A DNA stretch of 64,000 bases from a virus: positions 6,320-70,319 of the IMG/VR virus record IMGVR_UViG_3300023198_001252. The stretch is one strand, 5' to 3'. A model generated the notes under the pieces. That model saw nothing but the letters and a program-made list of their open reading frames with translations. It searched no databases and was not told the DNA's origin. This document shows positions 356 through 50,516 of this stretch, one piece after another (position 1 is the first letter of the stretch; every line of letters begins with the position of its first letter). The position numbers were made by a program, and so were the translations under genes.

Positions 356-655
356 TCAATTTTTAAATCTATTATCTACTTTTATATTCTTAATAAATGT
401 TTCAATATCATTAACAGTATCACTGTCTTTATCCATAATACTGTCATAAACTGTAAAACCTGTAGAAAAATGCCGTTCTTTTATTTCTTCTAATATTTCT
501 ATTTTTTCTGATAACAATTTAATAAATTCATCCCTTTTCTGTATTTCTTCTTTTTGCCCTACTCCTATTTTAAATACATCAATAATTTTAACAATAATTT
601 TAACGGTATCAATTATAATAGATAAACAGAGCAAAACAATAATCATATAAAGCAT
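356..655 (-). CDS. hypothetical protein with N-terminal membrane anchor
   Basis: Hydrophobic N-terminus then charged helix; EIQKRDEFIKLL resembles EVEKRNGIINQL of the neighbour. Confidence 0.7.
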   Translation of the reverse strand: MLYMIIVLLCLSIIIDTVKIIVKIIDVFKIGVGQKEEIQKRDEFIKLLSEKIEILEEIKERHFSTGFTVYDSIMDKDSDTVNDIETFIKNIKVDNRFKN

Positions 656-667
656 ATTAATACCTCC

Positions 668-1084
668 TTAAATACATATAATATCTATAGAATCCTCTTC
701 TACTTCTTTCACATAATCAAATTTTGTATCTCTTTGTGATTCAGGAATATAAGTAGACATATCACATCTTAATACATCATTAACTTTTTTCATATCTATT
801 TCATCTATTTTTATACCTGAATCTTTAAAAATTAGCTCATGGTATTTTATTAAATCTTTAGCTTTTATACCATGATTTTGAAAAGATATATTACCAGCAT
901 CTATTTCATCCTTAAATTCCATATCTATTCCATAATCAACACCTTCATCTTTTAACCTTTTTAATAATTGATTAATTATCCCATTTCTTTTTTCTACTTC
1001 TTTCATTAGCTTATTCCAACTAATTTTATTAGTATTAAAAATATAAACTAAAACAACTAAAAATATAATATTTATAATAAGCAT
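668..1084 (-). CDS. hypothetical protein with N-terminal membrane anchor, probable paralog of 356..655
   Basis: Same architecture; GGTGG RBS-like motif upstream. Confidence 0.7.
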   Translation of the reverse strand: MLIINIIFLVVLVYIFNTNKISWNKLMKEVEKRNGIINQLLKRLKDEGVDYGIDMEFKDEIDAGNISFQNHGIKAKDLIKYHELIFKDSGIKIDEIDMKKVNDVLRCDMSTYIPESQRDTKFDYVKEVEEDSIDIICI

Positions 1085-1204
1085 AAATAACCACCCTCTT
1101 TACATTTTATATTTAAATTGATACGCTATATCAATTTATTATATTTGTTTAACTTTGCCCTGTTTTTAAGCGTCTAAGAACAAGTCTATATTCTATTGTT
1201 ATTT

Positions 1205-3169
1205 CTAAAAACCTAACTCTGTCATAAATGATTCAATATCACCAGAACCAGTTGGTACAAAATCAGAATCATCTTCTATTTCATAATTAGCTAAAATATA
1301 TGTTTTAAGTTCTTCACATACTTGTAATTCTTTAATATCTGTTGTTTTCATTTTTCCAGCCTCTACCTCTTTTATCAATATAGACTTTTGAGATTCTACT
1401 GATAAATTTTTAATTAATCTGTAGCCTAAATATTCACCAGCTAGAGCTTTACCTCCAGCAACCAATCTAATCTTTTCACTTTTCATAATAGATATTTGTA
1501 ATTTTCGTGAACAATCTAAAACCAATTTATACTCATTCCGTACATATTTCTTAAACTTTTCCCATATCATACCATCATTATTAAGAAAGCCATGATTTAA
1601 GTTCTTTATAGTGCTATATTTATCTTTTATAAATCTTATATGTGTATTACAAAACTTTTCATACGTAGATAAGTAATCTCTATACTTATCATTTTTTTGA
1701 TACATTGTACAAGTTTTTTTCTGTGAGTATAGATAAAATTTATGCAAAGCATCTAATTTATAATAGATTGATTCTTTATTTATTTTCCATACTTCCGGCT
1801 CAAATAAACTTTTATATTTTTTTATAATTTTCTCAGGTATATCAATTGATTCTTTTAATTGAGCATTAATTAAAGTCACTTTATTTTTTTGTATAGTTGC
1901 ATAATATGACGAATTACACCTGTAATTATATAAAAACATTTGCATACTAGACATAAGCAATGTTTTTTTAATGTCAAATTTGTGATAAGAATATCCCGAT
2001 ATATATAATTTAGAATAATCATTTATTACTCTTTTTATTTCAATATCAGTTTGTATAGGTATAGAAGTATGTTTTTTTACTTCTCTTTGATTACAAAAAG
2101 AACCATCCTGTAAATCAACTAACATCTCACATACATTTTTAACTGTCTTTGAAACTCCTTTTGTAATATCATTAGGTAATTTATGTATAGACATTTTAAT
2201 TTTATACTTTTTTTCTCTTTGCTCTTCTGCTAAAGAATTCCAATAGGTAATATATTTTAATTGATTTTGCTCTTTTTTATTTAGTGTATATAGTTTTCTT
2301 TTTTTAATTTTATTATAAAGAGGCGGTGTGTTAAGTGGGTGAGGCGGTGAGGGGGCGGTGGTCGGCGTAAGCGCAACGTCGGTTATTAATTTCTTACTCT
2401 CTTCGAGAGGTGGTATAGGGAATTTATCTTTTATATTAGAAAAAGTATTAGATTTATCTTTCATGTTAAAATTATTTTGTAATTTTAGTTTAATTATATT
2501 TATATAATTAATTAATATATTATTATTATATATATTATTATTAAGTATATTAATACTTAGATCGACTTTTTCGATATTGGGGGTATGTTGTAAAAGTGTA
2601 GGGGTAAGGCTAGAAAAGTATAGGGTAGAACAAAAAATAGAATGTACAGGGTCTATAAAATTAACTATCCCATTCGCTAAGTAGTTATGCAATTTTATTA
2701 TATTTTCTGCTACTTCATTTTTATTATTGTTATTATAATAAATCATTAAATCTATTATTGTTGTATTAAGTCTATAATAATTAACATATTTATTCTCATC
2801 ATACCAACAATCAATTATTTTAAAATCTCTAAGTTTTTTTAATTTTTTCTTTATGTTGGCTTTAGTTTGCTTAAGAAAAAACAATTGTTCTCTAATATAT
2901 TCATGATCAATACGTATATATTCCTTATCCCCTACCTGCCTTTTTCTACTTTCAGAAGCATTACCACATGTATTATATATCCAATTCAATAAAATAGCAT
3001 CATTACTATCCAAGCTATGTATTTTTCCTTTTCCTTTTTCTATTGTTGTCTTTTGAAAACAAGAAAATAATGTTTGATTCCATTTTGTAATATTATGCTG
3101 ATAATGAAAATCCGGGTCATTTTCAGATTTTACATATTCTTCCATTTTTGCATTTAATTGTTTGTTCAT
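1205..3169 (-). CDS. putative phage replication initiator (N-terminal winged helix)
   Basis: N-terminus LDSNDAILLNWIY...YIRIDHEYIREQL...IKKKLKKLRDFKII is typical of wHTH initiators; central Asn/Ile-rich low-complexity linker with iteron-like DNA repeats. Confidence 0.55.
   Translation of the reverse strand: MNKQLNAKMEEYVKSENDPDFHYQHNITKWNQTLFSCFQKTTIEKGKGKIHSLDSNDAILLNWIYNTCGNASESRKRQVGDKEYIRIDHEYIREQLFFLKQTKANIKKKLKKLRDFKIIDCWYDENKYVNYYRLNTTIIDLMIYYNNNNKNEVAENIIKLHNYLANGIVNFIDPVHSIFCSTLYFSSLTPTLLQHTPNIEKVDLSINILNNNIYNNNILINYINIIKLKLQNNFNMKDKSNTFSNIKDKFPIPPLEESKKLITDVALTPTTAPSPPHPLNTPPLYNKIKKRKLYTLNKKEQNQLKYITYWNSLAEEQREKKYKIKMSIHKLPNDITKGVSKTVKNVCEMLVDLQDGSFCNQREVKKHTSIPIQTDIEIKRVINDYSKLYISGYSYHKFDIKKTLLMSSMQMFLYNYRCNSSYYATIQKNKVTLINAQLKESIDIPEKIIKKYKSLFEPEVWKINKESIYYKLDALHKFYLYSQKKTCTMYQKNDKYRDYLSTYEKFCNTHIRFIKDKYSTIKNLNHGFLNNDGMIWEKFKKYVRNEYKLVLDCSRKLQISIMKSEKIRLVAGGKALAGEYLGYRLIKNLSVESQKSILIKEVEAGKMKTTDIKELQVCEELKTYILANYEIEDDSDFVPTGSGDIESFMTELGF
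2320..2625. repeat. putative replication origin inside the initiator gene
   Basis: G(A/G)GGCGGTG at 2320, 2341, 2352; very AT-rich tract ~2460-2560; AAAAGTRTAGGG at 2592 and 2614. Confidence 0.45.
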
Positions 3170-3174
3170 TTTAT

Positions 3175-3447
3175 TTATCCTTTTTTATTTATTGTCCAGT
3201 TAAAATAGATTATATTATTGTTAGATTCTTTCTTAGGTATTACATTTATACCTTTTATTTTAAAAAATCTAACAATAATATTTAAATCAAATACTGATAG
3301 ATTACTATTTTTTTTAATATAAAAATTTAATCCGGTGTAACCTTGTTTAGATGCTTTTGTTATACTTTTATAACAATCTCTTACCATTTTTTTCATATTG
3401 GCTTTTCTTGCTTTTTTGTAGTTCATATTTAAAGTTTCTAATATCAT
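3175..3447 (-). CDS. hypothetical protein, tandem paralog of 3488..3772
   Basis: Shared NYxKARK...ASKxGYxGxxF...IIxRFFxxKGINVI pattern. Confidence 0.75.
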   Translation of the reverse strand: MILETLNMNYKKARKANMKKMVRDCYKSITKASKQGYTGLNFYIKKNSNLSVFDLNIIVRFFKIKGINVIPKKESNNNIIYFNWTINKKG

Positions 3448-3487
3448 TTTATTTATACCTCCTATATAATTAGCTTACTTATATTTT

Positions 3488-3772
3488 TTATATTATATTT
3501 TTTATACGATCTTCTAAATATATTTTTCTATCTCTTTTTGTTAACCATGTAAAAATATACATATTATTTTCTTTAATTACATTAATACCTTTATATTGAA
3601 AGAATCTAATAATAATAGGCAAGAAGGTATCGGCACTAGTTAAAAAAAACTGTATTCCTATATAACCACTTTTAGATGCTACATTTAACTCTTTATAAAG
3701 CTTTTTTATTCTTTCTTTTGTGTTGTTTTTTCTTGCTTTTATATAGTTTTGTTTAAAATTTTTTATTTTCAT
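3488..3772 (-). CDS. hypothetical protein, tandem paralog of 3175..3447
   Basis: Same shared pattern. Confidence 0.75.
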   Translation of the reverse strand: MKIKNFKQNYIKARKNNTKERIKKLYKELNVASKSGYIGIQFFLTSADTFLPIIIRFFQYKGINVIKENNMYIFTWLTKRDRKIYLEDRIKNII

Positions 3773-5218: not shown

Positions 5219-5313
5219 CCGAGATTAGTAATTAACAATTTTTTTACAATGCTATGAACTAGATACTGTAAAAAAATGGGAATATTACTTTTCATCTTCC
5301 CCTTTTTATATAC

Positions 5314-5512: not shown

Positions 5513-5581
5513 GTATTATTTAAGAAACAAAGGACTTTTATACTAATATTTAAATTATTTTAATTTATTTTAAAAAAACAC

Positions 5582-6307: not shown

Positions 6308-7393
6308 ATGGAGATACCAATGAAGATTATAGAATTTATAAAAGCAAATGATAATTGGAAAGAGCTGTTAAAAAAAGATCCTTATAATTTAATGATCAAA
6401 GAAGAAAATGGCTTTACTCTTTTAAAATACAATCAATTTAGCTCTGATTTCAACTTGCAAATAGTGCAGGAAGCTAGAGGGATTATTTTAGATAGGGATT
6501 TAAATATTGTAGCTCATCCTTTTCAAAAATTTTTTAATTATAGTGAGGATAATGCTGCAAAAATAGATTTTAAAACTGCAAAAGTTCAAGAAAAAATAGA
6601 TGGATCATTAATAAAATTATGGTATTATAAATACCAATGGTATTTATCAACTAATGGCTCTATAAATGCCTATACTACACCCACTAGTTTTTATAACACC
6701 CCTAAAACATTTGGTCATTTATTTACTATAGCTACAGAAAAACATAATATTAAATACTCGAAATTAGATAAAAAATATACATATATTTTTGAATTAGTAT
6801 CACTTTACAATAAAGTAGTTATTCCCTATTTAGAAACTAAAATATATCATATCGGCACAAGACATAATAAAACAGGTCAAGAAATTAATACAGATATCGG
6901 AATTGCTAAACCTAAAGAATATAAATTTGATTCTTTATATGATGTTTTTAAAACTGCTAAAAAATTACCTTATAATAAAGAGGGTTATGTCGTCGTAGAT
7001 GGTAATTGGAATAGGGTAAAAGTAAAATCTCCTGCTTATGTTGCAGTGCATTATCTGAAATCAACTTATTCAGAAGATAAATTATTAACATTAATTAGAA
7101 ATGGGGAAAGTGAAGAATTTTTAAATTATTTCCCTGAATATAAAAAAGATCATGATATCCTTAAAAAGGATTATGAGTTACTAATAAAAAAACTTAAGGA
7201 TGAATTCTTTTCGATGCAAAGAAATTCATTTACAGATAAAAAAGATTTTGCATTAAATTTTGCAAAACATACCACTATTCCAGATATCTTTTTTAGACTA
7301 TATGATAAAAAAATAAATAATATTTTAGAAGGGTTAGAAAAAGTAAGTAATGAGAATATATTTAAACAAATAACAAAATTAAAAGGAGAATAG
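6308..7393 (+). CDS. RNA ligase, T4 Rnl1-like nucleotidyltransferase
   Basis: Motif I QEKIDGSLI, EARGIILD, FELVS, EGYVVVD, RVKVKS. Confidence 0.85.
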   Translation: MEIPMKIIEFIKANDNWKELLKKDPYNLMIKEENGFTLLKYNQFSSDFNLQIVQEARGIILDRDLNIVAHPFQKFFNYSEDNAAKIDFKTAKVQEKIDGSLIKLWYYKYQWYLSTNGSINAYTTPTSFYNTPKTFGHLFTIATEKHNIKYSKLDKKYTYIFELVSLYNKVVIPYLETKIYHIGTRHNKTGQEINTDIGIAKPKEYKFDSLYDVFKTAKKLPYNKEGYVVVDGNWNRVKVKSPAYVAVHYLKSTYSEDKLLTLIRNGESEEFLNYFPEYKKDHDILKKDYELLIKKLKDEFFSMQRNSFTDKKDFALNFAKHTTIPDIFFRLYDKKINNILEGLEKVSNENIFKQITKLKGE

Positions 7394-7395
7394 TA

Positions 7396-7674
7396 ATGAC
7401 TATAACAAAACTAAAAGATTATAAAATTACAGGGTATATAGAACACCCAGGAAAGAACATAATAGAGATTGCTGTAATAGCAAGTATTTGGAGTGATAGT
7501 TTTATTATTCTATCAAGCAATTATTATATATGTGAATCTATAAGAACAATCAGATCCATAGATTCACATATAGCTTTAATCGATTATGCATGGAAATATG
7601 AACACAAAAAAGTTATATTACATAATCCTGAAATACTAGAAGAAATCAAAGAGTATATAAAAAGTATGAAGTAG
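7396..7674 (+). CDS. hypothetical protein; its stop codon is the first 3 nt of the inserted mini-element
   Basis: Ends ...KSMK-TAG, with TAG at 7672-7674. Confidence 0.65.
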   Translation: MTITKLKDYKITGYIEHPGKNIIEIAVIASIWSDSFIILSSNYYICESIRTIRSIDSHIALIDYAWKYEHKKVILHNPEILEEIKEYIKSMK

Positions 7675-7978
7675 ATTGAACAAAAGTATTGACTTTTATA
7701 AAAAAGTTAGGAATATCGTATATAAATATGAGAAAGAAAATATCAACTTATGCAAAAGAAAACAATTTATCTTATATTTTTGTGACTGTGGGTTAGAAAT
7801 TGATAGAGATTTAAATGCGTCTATAAATATTTGTAATGAATATTTTAAAAATAATTCGGTGGAGTACATCGAATACAATCATGGAGAAACAATAAATCCT
7901 TGTAAAATTATTTATAATTTTTCAGGTAGTTTTAGTGAAGTGATTACCGAAAGTATTAACATTTGTTAAAACTTTTAG
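7672..7978 (+). mobile_element. 307-bp internally deleted IS607-type element (left end + tnpA start joined to tnpB end + right end)
   Basis: ATG 7728 encodes MRKKISTYAKENNLSY (IS607 TnpA-like HTH start), joined at TAT to the TnpB tail FCDCGLEIDRDLNASINI; near-identical to 12999..13303; boundaries inferred. Confidence 0.75.
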
Positions 7979-8452
7979 ATACTATATGATGGGAGATATG
8001 AAATAACTAGTGATGGAAGGGTTTTTAGTTATTGCAGTGGTGATAGAAGAGAAAGAAAGTTGGGTCTTAGAAGTAGAACGGGAAGAAATGTATATTTATT
8101 TGTTAGTTTATGGGTGGATAAAAGCCATCACTGTAACAAGTATGTACATAGATTAGTAGCTGAGGCTTTCATACCAAATCCTAATAATTACCCTCAAGTG
8201 AATCATTTGGATGGGAATAAACTTAATAATAATATAGATAATTTAGAATGGTGTACTAATAGTCAAAATCAAATACATGCAAGGAATATAGGTTTAAAAC
8301 ATAATATATGTAGAATAAATATGGAAATTGCTAACAGAATTAGAGAGTTATACAAGACAGGTAGATACTATCAAAGGGAATTAGGTATTATGTTTGGAAT
8401 TACACAAATGCAGATTAGTGTTATTATAAATAATAGAATGTGGAAAATATAG
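7979..8452 (+). pseudogene. NUMOD4-HNH homing endonuclease, start separated by the mini-element
   Basis: ILYDGRYEITSDGRVFS...YVHRLVAEAFIPNPNNYPQVNHLDGNKLNNNIDNLEWCT. Confidence 0.8.
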
Positions 8453-8453
8453 T

Positions 8454-9368
8454 ATGAGAATTGATGTTATACAAATATTTCAAGATAACGGAATTGAATA
8501 TTTTGAAAGTGGTAAGAATGTACAAACAGGTTGGATTAACATTCAATGCCCATTATGTGATGATCAATCAAATCACGGGGGATTTAACCTAGAATCTCAT
8601 GATACTTATTTTAATTGTTGGCTTCACGGATGGTCATCTTTATACTCTGTTTTTAAAAAACTGATCCCTCATGCTAATTTCAAAGAATTACAACATGATT
8701 ATAGAAATAGGAATACTGATGCCATAATTGAAGAAGGTACAGTTAAAGAAGTTTTTCAAAAAAATAAAAAAGTAATAATCCCTGGAAATAATATACCTGG
8801 ATTACTACATAAAAGATATTTTAAAAAGAGGGATTTTAATGATCTAGAATATTTAATCATAAAATATAATTTGCATTTTACAGATCATTTAGAAAGTACT
8901 GACTATAAATTTAGAATTATATTCCCGATAAATTGGAAAGGTAAAACAATTAGTTATCAGGGAAGAGATGTTACTAATGAACAAGTTATACGCTATAAAG
9001 CTTGTTCAAAACATAATGAGTTAATGAATCATAAATCTATATTATATAATATAGATAATTGTAATAAGTCTTATATTGGAGTTGTTGAAGGTATTTTTGA
9101 TTGTATTAGATTTGGTGATAATTTCGCTGCTACATTTGGAGTAGCTTATACGAATATGCAATTACAATTATTGAAAAAATATAAAATGGTTTTTATTATT
9201 TTTGATCCAGATAAAGCAGGGCAAACAAGAGCCGAAAAACTGTCTATAGCCTTATCTAGTTTTGGGGTACATAATAGTATTATAGTGTTAGATGACAAAA
9301 ATAAAGATCCTGCTAAGTTATCAGATAGAGAAGTTATACAAATTAAAAAAGAATTACAAATATTTTAA
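8454..9368 (+). CDS. DNA primase (zinc finger + TOPRIM)
   Basis: CPLCDD...H...CWLHG zinc-binding domain; VVEGIFD and IFDPDKAG TOPRIM motifs. Confidence 0.85.
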   Translation: MRIDVIQIFQDNGIEYFESGKNVQTGWINIQCPLCDDQSNHGGFNLESHDTYFNCWLHGWSSLYSVFKKLIPHANFKELQHDYRNRNTDAIIEEGTVKEVFQKNKKVIIPGNNIPGLLHKRYFKKRDFNDLEYLIIKYNLHFTDHLESTDYKFRIIFPINWKGKTISYQGRDVTNEQVIRYKACSKHNELMNHKSILYNIDNCNKSYIGVVEGIFDCIRFGDNFAATFGVAYTNMQLQLLKKYKMVFIIFDPDKAGQTRAEKLSIALSSFGVHNSIIVLDDKNKDPAKLSDREVIQIKKELQIF

Positions 9369-9385
9369 TCTTTTTTAAAAAACAC

Positions 9386-9443
9386 TTGACTTTTTCATAT
9401 AGTTTATATATATTTATAATAAGAGCTGGTAAGGGGTTACATT
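9386..9443 (+). promoter_or_regulatory. early promoter with variant leader
   Basis: TTGACT-17-TATATT; AAGAGCTGGTAAGGGGTTAC. Confidence 0.75.
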
Positions 9444-9971
9444 ATGAAAGCACTTAATATACATATACAAAAACTATGCAATGCTATACATAGTGAAAAA
9501 GAAAGAATTATAAAAAAATATAATATGCAAAATGTTAGATTATATGATTCTGAAATTAAAACAGTATTAAAAGATGATTATTCAAATAACCTTGTAAAAA
9601 CAGATAAAGAAAATAAATTAGTTTTTGGACTGGCAAGACAGATTGTAAAAACTTATAAAGATAGAAAAACAAAAAAGTTCACAAGAAAAACAATTAATTA
9701 CTCTATAAAGATTAATATAGTTTTGCATACTAAAATAAAGAAAATAGAAGGGTATACAAAAAAACAAACAGTTATTTATAGATTAGCTCAAACATTATTA
9801 CATGAATTGGTACATGTTAAATTATTCCAAGAAGGAAATACTACACATACACACGGTGTAGATTTTGAAAAAGCTATGAAGAATTTAGTAAGTAATGAAG
9901 CTGCTATAGTGTATAAAAAATTATACAGCGCTTATAAAATGTATAAATTAAATACATCTTTTATAGTTTAA
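9444..9971 (+). CDS. SprT-like zinc metalloprotease domain protein
   Basis: LLHELVHV...HTHGVDFEKAM (HExxH plus downstream HG..F). Confidence 0.75.
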   Translation: MKALNIHIQKLCNAIHSEKERIIKKYNMQNVRLYDSEIKTVLKDDYSNNLVKTDKENKLVFGLARQIVKTYKDRKTKKFTRKTINYSIKINIVLHTKIKKIEGYTKKQTVIYRLAQTLLHELVHVKLFQEGNTTHTHGVDFEKAMKNLVSNEAAIVYKKLYSAYKMYKLNTSFIV

Positions 9972-10003
9972 TAAAAACTATTTAATCTTTTTTAAAATAA
10001 TAC

Positions 10004-10055
10004 TTGACTTTTTAATTTATAAGTATTATCTTATTAATAAGAACTTGTAATTCTA
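10004..10055 (+). promoter_or_regulatory. early promoter with partial leader
   Basis: TTGACT-17-TATCTT; AATAAGAACTTGTAA. Confidence 0.6.
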
Positions 10056-10122
10056 TGTATGGATTAGATGATACTAGTTATTTTGTAGATTTACACAGAA
10101 ATGAAAAAGGAGATAGGTTATA

Positions 10123-10593
10123 ATGATGGATTTAAACGCAACAGATAATAAAAATATTTTAAAATTACAAAAATATAAAGCAATGGATCATCTTATTTTT
10201 GATGGTCGTTCTTTTAAATCATTAGAGAGATTAAAAGAGCATAAATTAGTAAAAATAGAAACAGCATATAATTGTAGTACTAAAAAGAATATACCTACTT
10301 TTTTTGTCACTTTAACAGAGAAAGGACTACAATATAAAAAGTTTCATAAAAATAAAACTATAATAAAATTAAATAAGCTTACAGCAGAAGCTGCTGTAAA
10401 TTGGAGATACTACAAAAGATTTAAAAAGTACGGTCTATATAAAATTATAAACATACTTACAAAAGAAGAGATAAAAGAAATAGGTATATATTTTGAATCG
10501 AGCAAAAAACTATTTAATCATATAAAATATATTTGGTATAAGAACAGAAAAGGCCTTACTAGTGATAGAAAAGAAAATAAAGAAATATTCTAA
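10123..10593 (+). CDS. hypothetical basic protein
   Basis: AAGGAG RBS; the 3' end overlaps the truncated tnpB. Confidence 0.65.
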   Translation: MMDLNATDNKNILKLQKYKAMDHLIFDGRSFKSLERLKEHKLVKIETAYNCSTKKNIPTFFVTLTEKGLQYKKFHKNKTIIKLNKLTAEAAVNWRYYKRFKKYGLYKIINILTKEEIKEIGIYFESSKKLFNHIKYIWYKNRKGLTSDRKENKEIF

Positions 10594-11158
10594 AATATTT
10601 GCAAGAAAACAAAAAGACAGTAAAAGGAGAGAAAAGTTTAGGGTAAAACTAGCAAGACTTTATGAGTATAAGAATAATTTTTTAAATCATTTTCATTGGA
10701 ATTTAGTACACAAACTGACTAGTGAGAACAAAGCTATATCAATTGAAAATTTAAATATTTCAGGGATGATTAAAAATAAAAGGCTATCACACTCTATTCA
10801 TTATTCTAATTTTGGAGGTTTTATTGATAAATTAGAACAAAAAGCGAATGACTATGATACAATTATTTATAAAGTTGGTAGATTTTATCCAAGCTCAAAA
10901 TTATGTTCAAAATGCGGAAATAAAAAAGATGATTTAAAATTATCGGATAGAATATATTTTTGTGACTGTGGGTTAGAAATTGATAGAGATTTAAATGCGT
11001 CTATAAATATTTGTAATGAATATTTTAAAAATAATTCGGTGGAGTACATCGAATACAATCATGGAGAAACAATAAATCCTTGTAAAATTATTTATAATTT
11101 TTCAGGTAGTTTTAGTGAAGTGATTACCGAAAGTTTTAACATTTGTTAAAACTTTTAG
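10562..11158 (+). pseudogene. tnpB: 5'-truncated tnpB (bridge helix, RuvC-II, Zn ribbon, RuvC-III) with right end
   Basis: ISIENLNISGM, YPSSKLCSKCG, DRDLNASINI; no RuvC-I DxG upstream (in-frame stop at 10520); 3' ~210 nt near-identical to both mini-elements. Confidence 0.85.
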
Positions 11159-11176
11159 ATACTATGAGGAAATATA

Positions 11177-11458
11177 ATGACTATAAAAGAGTTTATAAAT
11201 AAAGATAAAACAACTAAAAAAGATATTAGCAGTTTAAGAAATCATTTAAACTCAGTGCATCCTATTGATAATGTACAAAATAAAACACATAGTAAATGGA
11301 ATAGAGATACATATTCCTTTACTGTTAATAACAAAGATTTTAGTTTTTGTGAATATATAAAAAAAGATAATTACGCTACATTCATTCATTGTACTATGTT
11401 TTGTAAATATACGGCTTACATTTTTGATGTAAGTAAAAAAATAAAATTAAAAAAGTAA
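11177..11458 (+). CDS. hypothetical protein
   Basis: GAGGA RBS; open frame. Confidence 0.65.
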   Translation: MTIKEFINKDKTTKKDISSLRNHLNSVHPIDNVQNKTHSKWNRDTYSFTVNNKDFSFCEYIKKDNYATFIHCTMFCKYTAYIFDVSKKIKLKK

Positions 11459-11472
11459 ATATATAACTCCTT

Positions 11473-11520
11473 GAGTTTGGTATAAACCCCATAATTTTAT
11501 ATATGCCAAACTCTTTTTTT
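11473..11520 (+). terminator. large-loop intrinsic terminator
   Basis: GAGTTTGG...CCAAACTC then T7. Confidence 0.65.
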
Positions 11521-11558
11521 ATTTTTATGGAAATTGAAAAGTATTAAGGGTGGATATT

Positions 11559-12030
11559 ATGCAATTGAAGATTATACATGATGGAAAATATGAAATAAGT
11601 AATACAGGTAGAATATTTAGTATTATAGGAAATAGAAAAGAATTAAAGCAACGTATTAGAAGTACAAAAAATCACTATAAATGCGTTTCTGTATACATTA
11701 AAAAAAATGTATACAATCTATATACATAGATTAGTTGCTATGGCTTTTATACCTAATCCAAATAATTATCCTCAAGTAAACCATAAGGATGGAGATAAAA
11801 GTAATAATAATGTAAGTAACCTTGAATGGTGTAATAATCAACAAAATAGTATATATGCAAGAGATAATGGATTAAAACCTAAAGTATGTAAAATAAATAT
11901 GGAAATAGCCAATAAGATTAGAGAGTTATATAAAACAGGTGAATATTCTCAAAAAGAATTAGGGAAAAGATACCGTATAAAACAAAATACTATTAGTTTA
12001 ATTGTACGCAATAAAAGATGGAAAATATAA
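11559..12030 (+). pseudogene. NUMOD4-HNH homing endonuclease split by a frameshift in an A8 run
   Basis: MQLKIIHDGKYEISNTGRIFS from 11559; HRLVAMAF...NHKDGDKSNNNVSNLEWC is in another frame after A8 at 11700-11707. Confidence 0.75.
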
Positions 12031-12067
12031 ATAGATATTACATAAACACATATAAAGGAGTAATAAA

Positions 12068-12892
12068 ATGAAATTAAAACCAATAATCAAATGTCCCGGA
12101 GGAAAAACCAAGCTACTAGATACTCTACTCTCTATGATTCCTGAACATACAAGATATGTTGAACCATTTATAGGGGGCGGTGCTCTATTTTTTGCACTAC
12201 AACCCGAAGAAGCTTTAATCGCTGATGTTAGTCAGCAATTAATAAATGTGTATGAACAAATTAAGCACAATGTTGAATCCCTTATTATACTATTAAGAAA
12301 TCATAGGGAATCACACTCTAAGGAACACTATTACACAGTAAGAAAAGAGGATAAATCACCAATGTTTCAAAGATTACCCTATGGAGTAGATAAGGCTGCC
12401 CGTTATATATACTTGAATAAAACTTGTTTTAATGGTTTAATTCGGGTAAACAAATCAAATCAGTTTAACGTTCCAATGGGTGCTTATACACACCCTAGAA
12501 TATTAGATAAAGAAATGTTATTGGCTATTTCAGAATATTTAAATAACAATAATATTAAAATTAAAGCTACTGGTTTTACAAATATTTTTAATAATTTAGG
12601 AAAGGGGGATTTTTGTTATCTAGATCCCCCTTACCATTCAATATCGGAGACTAGTAATTTTACTGCATATACAGTGAAAGGTTTTACACTTACAGATCAT
12701 ATCCGATTGAAACTAGAATGTGATAAATTAACTAAAAAAAATGTCAAATGGGTACTTAGTAATTCCTATTGTAAAACTACATTAGACTTATGGAAAGATT
12801 ATGAAATTATTGAAGTTTTTGAAAAAAGAAATATAGCTGCAAATGTGAAGAGCAGAAAAAACATAAAAGAAATATTAGTAAAGAATTTTTAA
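12068..12892 (+). CDS. dam: Dam-family (D12 class) N6-adenine methyltransferase
   Basis: GGKTKLL, YVEPFIGGGALFF, YLNKTCFNGL, YLDPPY. Confidence 0.9.
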   Translation: MKLKPIIKCPGGKTKLLDTLLSMIPEHTRYVEPFIGGGALFFALQPEEALIADVSQQLINVYEQIKHNVESLIILLRNHRESHSKEHYYTVRKEDKSPMFQRLPYGVDKAARYIYLNKTCFNGLIRVNKSNQFNVPMGAYTHPRILDKEMLLAISEYLNNNNIKIKATGFTNIFNNLGKGDFCYLDPPYHSISETSNFTAYTVKGFTLTDHIRLKLECDKLTKKNVKWVLSNSYCKTTLDLWKDYEIIEVFEKRNIAANVKSRKNIKEILVKNF

Positions 12893-12998
12893 AATTAAAG
12901 GAAGATGATTATGGTACAAAAAGAAAAAGATTTAATAATTAGAAAATTAAAAGTAATAGATCTTTTTATAACTAAAAGTTATAACTTTTAGTATGAAG

Positions 12999-13303
12999 TA
13001 GATTGAACAAAAGTATTGCCTTTTACTACAAATAGGAATATCATATATAAATATGAGAAAGAAAATATCAACTTATGCAAAAGAAAACAATTTATCTTAT
13101 ATTTTTGTGACTGTGGGTTAGAAATTGATAGAGATTTAAATGCGTCTATAAATATTTGTAATGAATATTTTAAAAATAATTCGGTGGAGTACATCGAATA
13201 CAATCATGGAGAAACAATAAATCCTTGTAAAATTATTTATAATTTTTCAGGTAGTTTTAGTGAAGTGATTACCGAAAGTATTAACATTTGTTAAAACTTT
13301 TAG
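12999..13303 (+). mobile_element. 305-bp internally deleted IS607-type element, second copy
   Basis: Same tnpA-start/tnpB-end junction as 7672..7978; differs only near the left end. Confidence 0.75.
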
Positions 13304-13358
13304 ATACTATGATCTGATTTTAATAAAAAATTAAAAGTGACTAAAGGAGTAAAAGAGA

Positions 13359-14090
13359 ATGTCTGGATTTAACAAAGGAAAAGAAAATAATTACCATGAT
13401 AATAGAAAAGAAAATAGAATATTTACACCGGAAATAGTAGCAAAAAGAATACATACTATTATAGCTGATATTTATCCTGAAATATTAATAAATAGAAAAA
13501 ACATATTAGATATGTGTTGTGGTAATTGGAACTTATCCAAATGGTTTATTTATAATAGTATTTTTGGTATAGATATTGTGCAGCCATATAAAAAGATAAG
13601 AAATAGTAAATTTATATTATCTGACTATTTAAAAGATGATAGAAAAGATAAAAGGGATTACACTTTAATTATGTGTAATCCACCATTTAATAATAAAGAA
13701 AAAGGTAGTAAGTTATTACTACCTTTTGAATTTCTAAAAAAAATATTAAATGATTTCCCTGATAAACCTTTAGTACTTTTTGCACCACATGGACTTTTAA
13801 ACAATAATGAGATATTTGGAAAAAAGTATAAACAAAAAGTAGAAGACGCAAAAAATGATAATGAGCTACCACGCTATAAATGGATGCAAAAAAATATACA
13901 TAAATTAAACAGTATGTTAATTTTACCTAAAGATGCATTTGTAGAAAATAGATATATGGGAACGGTTGTAAAAAAAGATAAAGAAACAGGTGCTATAATT
14001 AGTGAAAAAGAAGTTGAAAAAGGAATACTTGTACATAGTTTTGTTACTTTCTGGAATATGCCAAAATTAGAGTCTTTTTACACTCTTTGA
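13359..14090 (+). CDS. putative amino-methyltransferase (gamma-type motif order)
   Basis: FTP, ILDMCCG, GIDI, IMCNPPF. Confidence 0.75.
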   Translation: MSGFNKGKENNYHDNRKENRIFTPEIVAKRIHTIIADIYPEILINRKNILDMCCGNWNLSKWFIYNSIFGIDIVQPYKKIRNSKFILSDYLKDDRKDKRDYTLIMCNPPFNNKEKGSKLLLPFEFLKKILNDFPDKPLVLFAPHGLLNNNEIFGKKYKQKVEDAKNDNELPRYKWMQKNIHKLNSMLILPKDAFVENRYMGTVVKKDKETGAIISEKEVEKGILVHSFVTFWNMPKLESFYTL

Positions 14091-46293: not shown

Positions 46294-48864
46294 TTATCCT
46301 ACACTATGCTTTATACTTTTTTGTATCATTGGTCTATGCAGTAATCTATAGCCCGATTCATCCGCACAATTAGATACTACTATTCCGTGTTCTATACAAA
46401 ATCTTTCATGTGTAGGAACTGTTAAACAATATACATCCTCATTAGATATGCTTTCTCTTTTTATCAAATGTACTAAATTTTGTTTATTTTTTTTTAATTT
46501 AACTAAGAAGAATTTATCTTCTTTTATTCTAATTGCATCGGCTCTTATCCATTTCTGACCTGTATAAAATAAATGGTCTGGTGTACATTTAATTCTCATA
46601 CCATCAGAAAAATATAATTTTATAACTTTTTTATTTTCCCCTACTAGTCTACAATTTCTATATTTTTGATAACCGCTATCTGTTAATACTTTACCCTTTG
46701 TATTTACTAAATCTTTTATAGCAATTTTACCTTTAGTAGTAATTACTTTAGTGTCCCCTGTAAAGCAGTGGTCTTCTTCATCTGTGTTTGAAACTAAAAT
46801 ATTATTTGCGTAATACAATCCTGCTTTTTCGGTTACAAGATTGTAAACCGTTTTTTTATCTTTTATATTTTCAATACTAGTTATACTTATATTTTTAATA
46901 CTCACATTATAACATTTATCAGAATATAGTTTAAAAAAATCATCAGTGATATTATCTTTATATTCTTTAGATATATTCACAATTCTTATCTTCTCTATAA
47001 TCTCTATTATTTCATTACGTGCTACTTTTTTATTTTTTTTATTTAATAGAATATCTTTGTCTAAATAAGATGAAAATAAAATAAAAGGAATTGTAGCAAA
47101 AACACTTAAATAATTAATATTCAACTTATAAGCCAACATACTTTTTGATTTATTCCATTGTACTTTTTCTAGTGTACTATTTATTTTTAAATCCTTTAAC
47201 GCTATTAACCCTTTTCCCGGAACATGTATCTTATGATTTGGTGTACCTTCTAAACTTTCACCATTTGAAAAAGTTACTTTTATTGTTTTACTCATTCCAC
47301 TGCAAATCGATTTTTTAACTTTACATAATCCTATTGGAGTATAAACTAAATCCTTTTTTGTAACATCTTCAATATTTTTAAGTTCTTTTTCAGTTTGAAC
47401 TTTGGTACCGGCAATAAAACAATTAATATCATCAGGATCTTTGTCATCTCTTCCCAATATTGGAACAGTTCTAATAAAAGCTTTACAATCTTCTGTAACA
47501 AATAATCCAGGATCCTCCATTGGGAATTTTAAAGCATCTTTAAACATTGTCCGCATTTTTTCCCATCTTCTCTTCCTACTACCAGGAGATTTATCAGCTT
47601 TTACAAAAATATGATTAGTTCTAGTATTTCCATAACCTTCATTAAGTAATTCAGCTATACTATCATTTTTATGATCTGCGTCAAATATAGAAGAGTCTCC
47701 AGGGCCAGGATTTATTTTAATAATATTAAATGCTTTTTTAATGTGTTGCTCTATTTTTTGAATACCTCTACCTATTTCTTTAGATGTTAATCTCAATCCT
47801 TTATTTTCTAGATTTGGTTGACAGCCATACCATTCCCAAAATCTAATTAATGTACCTTTTGGAAATGTTTTTTGTGCTAATTTTTCTATATAAGATCCAT
47901 CTAATTGTTTAATTTTATATATAATCGAAATAGGAGATCCATCTGTCATAGCCCAATAGCCTACAGAAAAAGGCTTCGATTGTCCATAGTCGAAAGACCT
48001 ATCTATGTACCAGGTATTAGGTATATTTATTCTAGGTAAAATGTGTACTTCTTTATCCCATACATCATCAAACATGCCACCAGCTACAATATCCCATGAA
48101 CCTTCAATCCATGCTTTCCTTATATTTGGATTTTTATTTTGTTCTAAATTTATCTCATACTCAGGATCATTATCTATAAATATTTTATTCTCAGATCTAC
48201 TACTATGTATGTAACAACGTTCACGAATCATTTCTTTTTTTGTGTTAGGGTTTTCTAACTTTTCTTCTATTACTTCACATGATTGATTTTCCGTTATTTT
48301 AAATCTTTTTTTAACCCAAAAATGCCCTTTTCCCCATGGATTACAAGTAGATCTAATCATTTTAGGTATCTCAGGATGTGAGGATCTGCAAATAGAAAAC
48401 ATCATGAGATATAACTCGTCTGTTCTCCAATTAGTTAATTCTTCCCAGCCGATAAAAGGATATGCATGTCCATGATAATTCCAATAATCATCAAGCCTGT
48501 TTGCATATCTAAAATAAAGTACCTCACCTTTTGGAAAAGTCCATTTATAATCAGAAGAATTAAATATCGCTTTTGGAAAAATTTGTTTAAACCACTTTAA
48601 ACTTTTTATCTTTATATCTTCTAAATTTTTATACGTTTCTCGAAAAATTATACCACGCCATTCAGCGCCATAACCTTTCCCAACATGCTGTAAGAAATTC
48701 ATTAAAAGTGCATCGGATTTTCCACCTGACCTATTCCCTTCTACTAGTACTTCAAATATAGGGCATTGTAGTAATAGGTCTTGAGCACCGGGATTAGGTT
48801 GCCAAATAACATTAATTTCTTTATTTAGTGTAGTATTATTATTCATTGATTTGTAATATAACAC
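46294..48864 (-). CDS. terL: terminase large subunit containing two inteins
   Basis: Walker A-like GNRSGGKS, Walker B-like IGWEEL, RSTCNP, RNase H DRSFDYG; two Hint insertions near the C-terminus. Confidence 0.9.
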   Translation of the reverse strand: MLYYKSMNNNTTLNKEINVIWQPNPGAQDLLLQCPIFEVLVEGNRSGGKSDALLMNFLQHVGKGYGAEWRGIIFRETYKNLEDIKIKSLKWFKQIFPKAIFNSSDYKWTFPKGEVLYFRYANRLDDYWNYHGHAYPFIGWEELTNWRTDELYLMMFSICRSSHPEIPKMIRSTCNPWGKGHFWVKKRFKITENQSCEVIEEKLENPNTKKEMIRERCYIHSSRSENKIFIDNDPEYEINLEQNKNPNIRKAWIEGSWDIVAGGMFDDVWDKEVHILPRINIPNTWYIDRSFDYGQSKPFSVGYWAMTDGSPISIIYKIKQLDGSYIEKLAQKTFPKGTLIRFWEWYGCQPNLENKGLRLTSKEIGRGIQKIEQHIKKAFNIIKINPGPGDSSIFDADHKNDSIAELLNEGYGNTRTNHIFVKADKSPGSRKRRWEKMRTMFKDALKFPMEDPGLFVTEDCKAFIRTVPILGRDDKDPDDINCFIAGTKVQTEKELKNIEDVTKKDLVYTPIGLCKVKKSICSGMSKTIKVTFSNGESLEGTPNHKIHVPGKGLIALKDLKINSTLEKVQWNKSKSMLAYKLNINYLSVFATIPFILFSSYLDKDILLNKKNKKVARNEIIEIIEKIRIVNISKEYKDNITDDFFKLYSDKCYNVSIKNISITSIENIKDKKTVYNLVTEKAGLYYANNILVSNTDEEDHCFTGDTKVITTKGKIAIKDLVNTKGKVLTDSGYQKYRNCRLVGENKKVIKLYFSDGMRIKCTPDHLFYTGQKWIRADAIRIKEDKFFLVKLKKNKQNLVHLIKRESISNEDVYCLTVPTHERFCIEHGIVVSNCADESGYRLLHRPMIQKSIKHSVG
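46369..46767 (-). other. mini-intein 2 in TerL (133 aa)
   Basis: CFTGDTKV...IKCTPDHLF...VYCLTVPTHERFCIEHGIVVSN / +1 Cys. Confidence 0.85.
46786..47421 (-). other. intein 1 in TerL (212 aa)
   Basis: CFIAGTKV...LEGTPNHKI...VYNLVTEKAGLYYANNILVSN / +1 Thr. Confidence 0.85.
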
Positions 48865-49324: not shown

Positions 49325-50516
49325 TTATACAACCTTCACCGACTGAGCAATATTAACAGCAGCGTTATAATCTCGATCAAGTTCCTCATTACATTCAGGG
49401 CATATATATTTCCTGTCACTTATTTTAATTTCCTTATTGATAAATCCACACTTATTACATGTTTTTGTAGTATTTTTAGGATTAACATATACAGTAGCTA
49501 TCCCATTCATTTTAGCTTTATACTCAATGTAACTTTGTAATTCATAATAAGTCCAATTCCTTCTAACCCATTCATTCTTTTTATCCGGCATTTTTTCAAT
49601 TAAACTCAATTTTTCAAGTTTAATAATCCTGGCTTTATGCCTTAATGCAAATTTTATAATTTCACAACTTACTCGATGGTTTACTGTTTTTACAAAATTA
49701 CGTTCTTTGTTTTTAAATTTTTCAATTACTTTTGTTTTCTTTTTTCGGCCTTTGCCTCCATGTGCAATTTTTATGTTTCTTTGCATTTGCTTTAACTGTT
49801 TTTGTAGACGTTGTCTAGTAATATAATAACTTTCATTATTATTCTTATGTCCTCCAATAAATGCACGTTGTAGCCCCTTAGATAATGCACAAACTGCTAA
49901 TGTAGAGATTCCAATATCTACACCTACGCTTAATGTAGAATCTAGTTTATTAGGTGTAACTGGAATATCTACACAAAGATTAAGGAACCATTTATTTTTA
50001 GTTTTATGATGTTGGATAGAAGAGCCACACGCTTTATAGTTACCTTCTATGATTTGTTCTATAATGTACTGGTTATTTGATTTATCCCTTCCAAACTTTA
50101 AATTAAATTTAATCTTTTCTTGCCATTTTAAATGTATTTCTTTATCTATTTGTATAAAAGGTTTACCTTCTTTTGTAAATGGAAAATAAATAGGAAATCC
50201 AAGCCTTCTATAATTTCTTAAACTTCTATCACCTCTTAAAATTTCTTTTATGTCTGCTTTAAATTGCCCTTGAATATTTTGAGCAATACAAGCTCTTATA
50301 GCTGTTTGATATTTTATAGGAAATATTCTGTGCTGAACCTGAATTATATAAAGACTTTACATAATCATTTATAATTTTTTTATCTTCTTCAACATTTTCT
50401 TTTATTTTATTTGTTAATTTTAAATTCATATATAAATCAGACATAATCCCATTCGCTAATGTATATGAATTATAAGATAAATCATGTAATCTTTTATGGT
50501 AACTATATATATTCAT
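49325..50516 (-). pseudogene. Cas12f-like / TnpB nuclease in three reading-frame pieces
   Basis: Joined translation: FKADIKEILRGDRSLRNYR, FGRDKSNN, KNKWFLNL, RuvC-I VGVDIG, RuvC-II IKLEKL, WTYYELQSYIEYKA, TTKTCNKCG, RuvC-III DRDYNAAVNIA; frameshifts near 50312 and 49823. Confidence 0.85.

Follow-up and report, generated by a model that had tools for sequence, protein, structure and literature searches.

The DNA analysed here (the window) is a 64,000-nucleotide (nt) stretch of a phage genome, bases 6320-70319 of the 75,033-bp IMG/VR record IMGVR_UViG_3300023198_001252, which has a GC content of about 26% and is rated 74% complete by CheckV. We show here that this record contains four copies of one mobile element, three inside the window (A, B and C) and one outside it (D), and that all of them are defective. 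The element very probably belongs to the IS607 type. Its body probably extends from GAAGTAGATTG to TTTTAGATACTAT, with AGTAT at its left as the transposon-adjacent motif (TAM) and transposase target, a crossover in a shared TAT, and ACTAT as the element's own right tip. A preliminary description of this DNA had taken the conserved junction sequences for an unusually long, palindromic target site; most likely, this long target is an artefact of counting TAM and element tips as host sequence. Coordinates are window positions unless they carry the prefix G000, which refers to the whole record.

Repeat finding and alignment recover the repeats A to D (Table 1) far above chance level. They confirm the two internally deleted elements and the third right end with ATACTAT that had been described before, and add D as a fourth right end. 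Copies A (7663-7985) and C (12990-13310) are collinear and can be aligned end to end, the last 278 nt being 100% identical. All differences between them fall within the left 60 nt, in a cluster at 7692-7707 that includes a 2-nt indel and at 7717; in total, about 7 positions differ among the 105 nt of the left part and none among the 213 nt of the right part. Thus, the right ends are either constrained or homogenised, and their near-identity is the sole hint of ongoing activity. Copy B has the last 213 nt in common with A and C, starting at TATATTTTTGTGAC and with one mismatch. A single diagnostic base sets A and C (AAAGTATT) apart from B and D (AAAGTTTT), and B and D each differ from A at one position. 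In the mini-elements the internal deletion joint lies at 7772/7773, on a TAT that is codon 16 of a short open reading frame (ORF), MRKKISTYAKENNLSY, and also part of tnpB. As this joint recurs at two loci, in A and in C, it was the already deleted form that was copied. Every right end reads ...AACTTTTAGATACTAT, after which the sequences are unrelated (ATGATGGG at A, GAGGAAAT at B, GATCTGAT at C); D likewise continues from ATACTAT into new sequence, ATACACAT. Directly before both left ends (A and C) stands AGTATGAAG, and further upstream there is no similarity. The 75-kb record holds no full-length TnpB of the element's family and no resolvase-type gene, with no Resolvase match anywhere in it, so that all four copies are defective.

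Table 1. Copies of the element, their parts and adjacent features.
Feature	Position	Strand	Description
Mini-element A	7668..7985	+	318 bp; left part 7668-7772, right part 7773-7985 (last 62 tnpB codons, stop codon and 16 nt); repeat finding, alignment
Mini-element C	12995..13310	+	316 bp; deletion joint identical to that of A
Copy B	~10499..11165	+	5'-truncated, dead tnpB with intact right end; RuvC-I region missing
Copy D	G000:70608-70770	-	163-nt right-end stub, 99% identical, ~290 nt past the window end
AGTAT flank of A	7663..7667	+	proposed TAM/target motif; same 5 nt before C and the L276 element
AGTAT flank of C	12990..12994	+	proposed TAM/target motif
16 codons MRKKISTYAKENNLSY	7728..7775	+	read as serine-recombinase tnpA start; deletion joint on the last codon, TAT
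Left subterminal motif AAAGTATTGACTTTT...	7683..7704	+	small palindrome; direct repeat of 7950-7971
Putative ωRNA scaffold	7821..7985	+	kept in all four copies; ends with hairpin 7950-7975, then TAGATACTAT
HNH_3 endonuclease gene	7986..8452	+	directly downstream of copy A
Hairpin CTAAAAGTTATAACTTTTAG	12969..12989	+	directly left of copy C

The coding remnants point to the family. Copy B is the C-terminal half of a TnpB (Pfam OrfB_IS605, 9e-12; Cas12f1-like_TNB, 2e-18), 62% identical to residues 171-388 of the relative P0003 of 389 amino acids (aa). These matches correspond to the RuvC-like nuclease with zinc-ribbon TNB domain of such proteins; the copy itself is truncated, interrupted by an in-frame TAA and not functional. 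The closest full-length TnpBs have about 390-430 aa and are 56-67% identical to the fragment. At the DNA level, relatives were available only as the loci L015 and L274-L277, the latter four from an alignment search of IMG/VR with the clade-specific C-terminus only. In L274, the nearest DNA relative that has a transposase gene, a tnpA with HTH_17 and Resolvase domains overlaps a frameshifted tnpB, L275 has a C-terminal remnant of tnpA and an intact tnpB, and L276 and L277 are solo tnpB genes 52% identical to the window fragment. L015, also a solo tnpB (62% identical), is the sole close relative among the matches listed from IMG/VR, GTDB genomes and JGI metagenomes. The mini-element joint puts the tnpA start and the tnpB 3' end on one strand, and the intact order is found in L274 and L275. 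For the 16 codons of the left part, the top short-BLAST matches fall on residues 1-14 of TnpA_S ORFs located directly next to tnpB (L195, L107, L111; MKLSDYAKLNSISY, MKLSTWAKKQGISYKTAWRLW). A direct subterminal repeat (7683-7704 and 7950-7971) is 82% identical, and short direct subterminal repeats are known from IS607 ends (PMC6188088). The element lacks terminal inverted repeats, and apart from the 2-3 nt common to both junctions its target is not duplicated. Because of the clade context of L274, the TnpA_S matches and the direct subterminal repeats, we assign the elements to the IS607 type with considerable confidence, and the earlier proposal that a tnpA start has here been joined to a tnpB 3' end of this type is supported.

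Further searches delimit the clade. An Rfam scan of 7000-14000 detected no group I intron family, and the left part has just 105 nt. In the left end no consensus match for a tnpA promoter was seen; a -35-like TTGACT is altered in copy C, and we claim no promoter. No close TnpB was found in 400 Clostridia genomes, the relatives' own records contain no further copies, and exact-word scans of IMG/VR with the right-end and left-end tips returned nothing related. A scan for AAACTTTTNNATACTAT gave 116 loci, with tnpB only on two of them, the L276 and L277 contigs. The TnpB of Fusobacterium phage phiKSUM was considered as a relative and set aside, since its right end differs.

Where the element ends can be judged from its relatives. 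The right ends of L015 (...AAATTTGATACTAT, followed by ATTTAT) and L276 (...AAAACTTTTCTATACTAT, followed by CAGTTT), diverged relatives in other phages, both finish with ATACTAT and then continue into unrelated sequence. All six right-end flanks (A, B, C, D, L015 and L276) diverge right after ATACTAT, with TnpBs that are just 52-62% identical, while the 2 nt before ATACTAT vary, being AG in the window, TG in L015 and CT in L276. In L274 and L275 another terminal octamer, ATTATTAT, is kept after 3 variable nt. At the left junction, L276 reads ...GGAAACAGTAT/GAAACGAAAAG (that is, ...AACAGTAT/GAAACG; the slash marks the boundary) and has AGTAT/GAA in common with the window and nothing further upstream. 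Hence, the conserved right-end tip (...GATACTAT) most likely belongs to the element and not to the host. The AG core proposed in the preliminary description cannot be placed in L276 (left flank ..AGTATGAAA, right end ..TTTTCT) nor consistently in L015. An AT (or TA) inside the shared TAT, in a register that we infer, can be placed at both junctions of the window and in L276 and L015, and GG is absent. At A the last 2-3 nt (TAT) of AGTAT are common to the right-end tip, and the crossover would lie there. The genome contains AGTAT 361 times, compared to 355 expected, which makes it an easily met target.

A conserved 5-nt left flank is expected and not unusual, given what has been described for related elements. 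Experiments on CboIStron from C. botulinum showed that TGGG is both the target of TnpA_S and the TAM of TnpB and that the scaffold terminates in UCGG; preferences exist only upstream of the core and none downstream, and thanks to the one-base difference the donor is not cleaved by its own nuclease (Zedaveinyte et al., 10.1101/2023.11.20.567912). Other IS607 TnpBs use a strict 5-nt TAM, AGGAG, beside the left end (PMC11061315). The premise that IS607 elements have little target specificity beyond a 2-nt core, on which the claim of an unusual target was built, is therefore dated, as TAM-matching target motifs of 4-5 nt are documented (TGGG, AGGAG). Members of the family have an identical dinucleotide at termini and target, and most, although not all, end in GG (PMC6188088). 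The element described here has a probable non-GG junction, with AGTAT as TAM and ACTAT as right-end tip.

The right end may also encode an RNA. A consensus fold of five related right ends yields a hairpin and two long-range helices with 21 pairs, of which 8 show compensatory changes, and all 21 lie inside the 163 nt that are kept even by stub D. This structure fits a putative ωRNA scaffold; no Rfam family, including RAGATH-18, matches the right end. We considered pairing of a conserved GAGUA loop with the ACUAU tip in a pseudoknot and rejected it, because the loop is also kept in L274 and L275 without that tip and encodes an invariant Glu-Tyr.

Among the alternatives, the one that survives best counts ACTAT as host flank. 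The crossover would then be the AT in TTTTAG-AT-ACTAT, the right end would stop at ...TTTTAGAT, and the empty site AGT-AT-ACTAT would hold AGTATACT, a perfect palindrome of 8 bp with the exchanged AT at its centre, with a transposase that is truly site-specific. We consider this unlikely. A dyad centred on the crossover is how classical serine recombinases use their sites, AT is found in this register too at both junctions in the window, L015 and L276, and ATACTAT after every right end would be explained. However, AGTATACTAT is expected just 0.8 times per genome and has no unoccupied copy, yet 2-4 sites are needed (Poisson estimates P(>=4) ~0.01 and P(>=2) ~0.2). Moreover, characterised IS607 transposases prefer only core and upstream bases, and an invariant flank behind variable bases is left unexplained across elements with such divergent TnpBs; the terminal 8 nt of L274 and L275 are also conserved after variable bases. 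The rival boundaries predict AGTATACTAT or AGTATGAAGATACTAT as the empty site, whereas with AGTAT as target the site would be AGTAT joined directly to the flank.

Another explanation, which we regard as improbable, retains our boundaries and exchanges the engine: the parent could have been moved by a Y1 (IS200/IS605-type) transposase, or the copies could have been spread by phage recombination or gene conversion. Subterminal hairpins are present at both ends, at distances of 14 nt (left boundary) and 10 nt (right boundary), in an IS608-like geometry, and right ends that are 99-100% identical beside different left parts are what concerted evolution would give. However, among relatives in the clade, those that have a transposase gene all encode a serine recombinase, the 16 codons resemble a helix-turn-helix start and not the start of an HUH Y1 protein, and recombination leaves identical junction motifs at unrelated loci unexplained.

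The preliminary description had proposed an AG core, an element TAGATTG...CTTTTAG and a target AGTATGA-AG-ATACTAT, an interrupted palindrome of 14-16 nt (AGTATGAAG^ATACT). Such boundaries would restore a plausible start and N-terminus to the HNH gene at site A. The frame of this gene is open back into the right end (from the TAG at 7976-7978), and no start codon lies upstream of its NUMOD-like N-terminus; its paralogue at 11559-12030 begins MQLKIIHDGKYEIS. The joint in question yields ATG AAG ATA CTA TAT GAT GGG (MKILYDGRYEI), which resembles the paralogue (MQLKIIHDGKYEI) with TGAAGAT in common. By our estimate, coincidence would produce this likeness in only a few per cent of cases, and we take it as real evidence, which is however much weaker than the evidence opposing it. 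The junction bases are AA and CT in L276, and TG at the right in L015. By arithmetic from the genome base composition, chance would supply about 3e-4 copies of the 16-mer in 75 kb, yet its right half would be needed at four right ends and its full length at two; no unoccupied copy exists at <=2 mismatches, and at <=3 mismatches 6 are found compared to 2.6 expected. No HNH gene starts at sites B, C or D, and the joint would fuse the ORF 7396-7674 in frame to the HNH gene. As this upstream ORF is an orphan, its natural C-terminus cannot decide between the boundaries. In sum, these boundaries have little probability. A crossover in the pentamer TAGAT, which stands at both ends of A and C (GAAG-TAGAT-TGAAC, CTTT-TAGAT-ACTAT; empty site AGTATGAAGTAGATACTAT), is scarcely credible, although position 5253 (TATGAACTAGATACT), named earlier as an alternative empty site, would be a free copy matching at 14/15: this match is within chance (1 found compared to 0.54 expected at <=2 mismatches), L276 and L015 lack a shared pentamer there, and a 19-nt target would be still less attainable four times.

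Several observations weigh against our own reading. In the reconstructed empty site A (..TAA AAA GTA TAT GAT GGG) the HNH gene is without a start codon, and the AG joint with its likeness to the paralogue, as set out above, supplies one. The 16 codons match TnpA over too short a length to reach significant E-values by themselves, and BLASTP of these codons against the L274 TnpA gave no alignment. Folded as a single sequence, the right end does no better than its shuffles (z = -1.05). L015 and L276 are solo tnpB copies that may be immobile, and the left junction of L015 is a guess. The search for parents and unoccupied sites, as suggested before, recovered a relative with tnpA and tnpB (L274), but no empty allele, circle junction or full-length parent of the exact element; RNA ligase queries in IMG/VR and DNA or protein queries in INPHARED gave neither a related phage nor an empty allele. 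We therefore infer the boundaries from comparison, and the earlier caution about them was apt.

With these boundaries, a plausible history can be outlined. One IS607-family element, with a serine-recombinase tnpA and a tnpB for an RNA-guided nuclease, would have colonised the phage genome, and the present copies would be its relics. A and C could be regarded as non-autonomous derivatives similar to miniature inverted-repeat transposable elements (MITEs), in which an internal deletion joined tnpA codon 16 to the last 62 tnpB codons, keeping the left end and the right end with the ωRNA scaffold it would encode. The same joint at two loci suggests that the deleted form was mobilised in trans, and B and D may be right ends left by 5' deletions. 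AGTAT at the left would serve as a 5-nt TAM and target motif, with strand exchange in the TAT common to AGTAT and ACTAT. ACTAT would be the end of the ωRNA scaffold; it differs from the TAM by one base, and the donor would thereby escape self-cleavage. Each right end would specify a different guide from its flank (ATGATGGG..., GAGGAAAT..., GATCTGAT... and ATACACAT...). Since no cognate TnpB or TnpA is encoded in the record, movement of A and C and any action of the RNAs would depend on a co-infecting phage or the host to provide the proteins in trans. Palindrome-associated transposable elements (PATEs) and MITE-like derivatives of IS200/IS605 elements likewise keep their ends, lose their genes, are mobilised in trans and can still encode a guide RNA; they come from Y1-transposase elements with single-strand hairpin ends, whereas the parent here would be of the serine-recombinase type. 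Two bolder ideas appear doubtful to us. The right ends could be guide-RNA-only satellites that borrow TnpB (and TnpA) from the host or from a co-infecting phage and cut rival phages without insertion, or the transposase could recognise an 8-10-bp palindrome, AGTATACT(AT). In the first case the right ends would have been kept near-identical because they still work, and cutting would drive their own copying; in the second, the transposase would be the first site-specific one of the IS607 family.

Among characterised systems CboIStron is similar in its tnpA_S plus tnpB, a right-end ωRNA (putative here), the absence of terminal inverted repeats and of a target duplication, and in natural copies without tnpA. 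It also has a short left-flank motif that serves as transposase target and TAM, with a one-base variant at the right end (TGGG/TCGG there, AGTAT/ACTAT as proposed here). In contrast, the element in the window has no group I intron, a core of AT/TA and not GG, a 5-nt motif and a phage host, all its copies are defective, and it is known from sequence alone. IS607 from H. pylori, IS1535 and ISC1926 are comparable in gene order, short direct subterminal repeats and the use of one and the same dinucleotide for exchange at termini and target (Chen et al., 2018, PMC6188088); their ends are GG, and beyond insertion at GG they show no evident specificity. The element described here has no G at the junction. 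ISFba1-type IS607 TnpBs also have a 5-nt TAM beside the left end and a guide RNA from the 3' end plus downstream flank; their right-end element RNA (reRNA) is RAGATH-18-derived, whereas no Rfam family was detected in the window, and the TAM sequence is another (PMC11061315). The copies would provide a natural example of MITE-like, guide-RNA-bearing IS607/TnpB derivatives inside a phage. The pair AGTAT/ACTAT, if correctly placed, mirrors the TGGG/TCGG logic demonstrated by experiment in CboIStron and speaks for the rule that the right-end tip co-evolves with the transposase target and the nuclease TAM. With it, a TnpB clade that is compact (~390-430 aa) and apparently associated with phages gains an AT-rich candidate TAM of 5 nt. 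The known view of IS607 target choice is not overturned, and we regard the element as a decayed member of an ordinary, known type.

The surroundings of the copies provide additional observations. At C, the 14 nt left of TAT/GAAG match the 14 nt before ATACTAT in every right end at 13/14 positions; an alignment of the whole flank left of C was not significant. Possibly, the sequence left of C is the remaining tip of an older right end, which acquired AGTAT when it lost ATAC. Such a history would be consistent with insertion at AGTAT. Mini-element C is located between a gene for a D12-class N6-adenine methyltransferase (12068-12892, 3e-60) and a weakly methyltransferase-like gene (13359-14090). 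A second HNH_3 paralogue (11550-12030; 74% DNA identity to 8141-8440) is split over the overlapping frames 11550-11729 and 11707-12030 and is apparently frameshifted. As the HNH gene at 7986-8452 is start-less too, both homing-endonuclease genes of the module look damaged. In a 224-kb phage (L276; IMGVR_UViG_3300028862_000012, 580-3640) a solo tnpB with the same type of right end lies two small ORFs downstream of an RNA ligase gene. The ligase is 40% identical to that of the window, where A has a like neighbourhood (6308-7985). This could reflect an old insertion common to both phages, or else a place where such elements land repeatedly. The small ORFs beside the L276 element are not homologous to the ORF upstream of A, which leaves orthology of the insertion sites no more than a possibility.

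Elsewhere in the genome, a second, unrelated TnpB/Cas12f-like gene lies in pieces at 49325-50516 (minus strand). Its C-terminal ORF of 153 aa has a match to Cas12f1-like_TNB (1e-23) and shares about 25% identity with the TnpB of L276. Together with the IS607/TnpB relics, this fragment indicates that the phage carries relics of at least two RNA-guided nuclease systems. An 856-aa ORF at 46294-48864 (minus strand) matches Intein_splicing in two stretches and, weakly, Hint_2, and thus contains inteins. The stretch from 7 to 16 kb is a mosaic of selfish and accessory genes, with HNH, methyltransferase and SprT-like genes next to the TnpB relics. A promoter-like repeat family of about 58 nt (TTGACTTTTTAATTT...TATTAT...AAGAGCTTGTAAGGGGTTAC) stands before genes at 5569, 9373, 9991, 14346, 16724 and 35384, and these repeats are probably the phage's own promoters with a common 5' leader.

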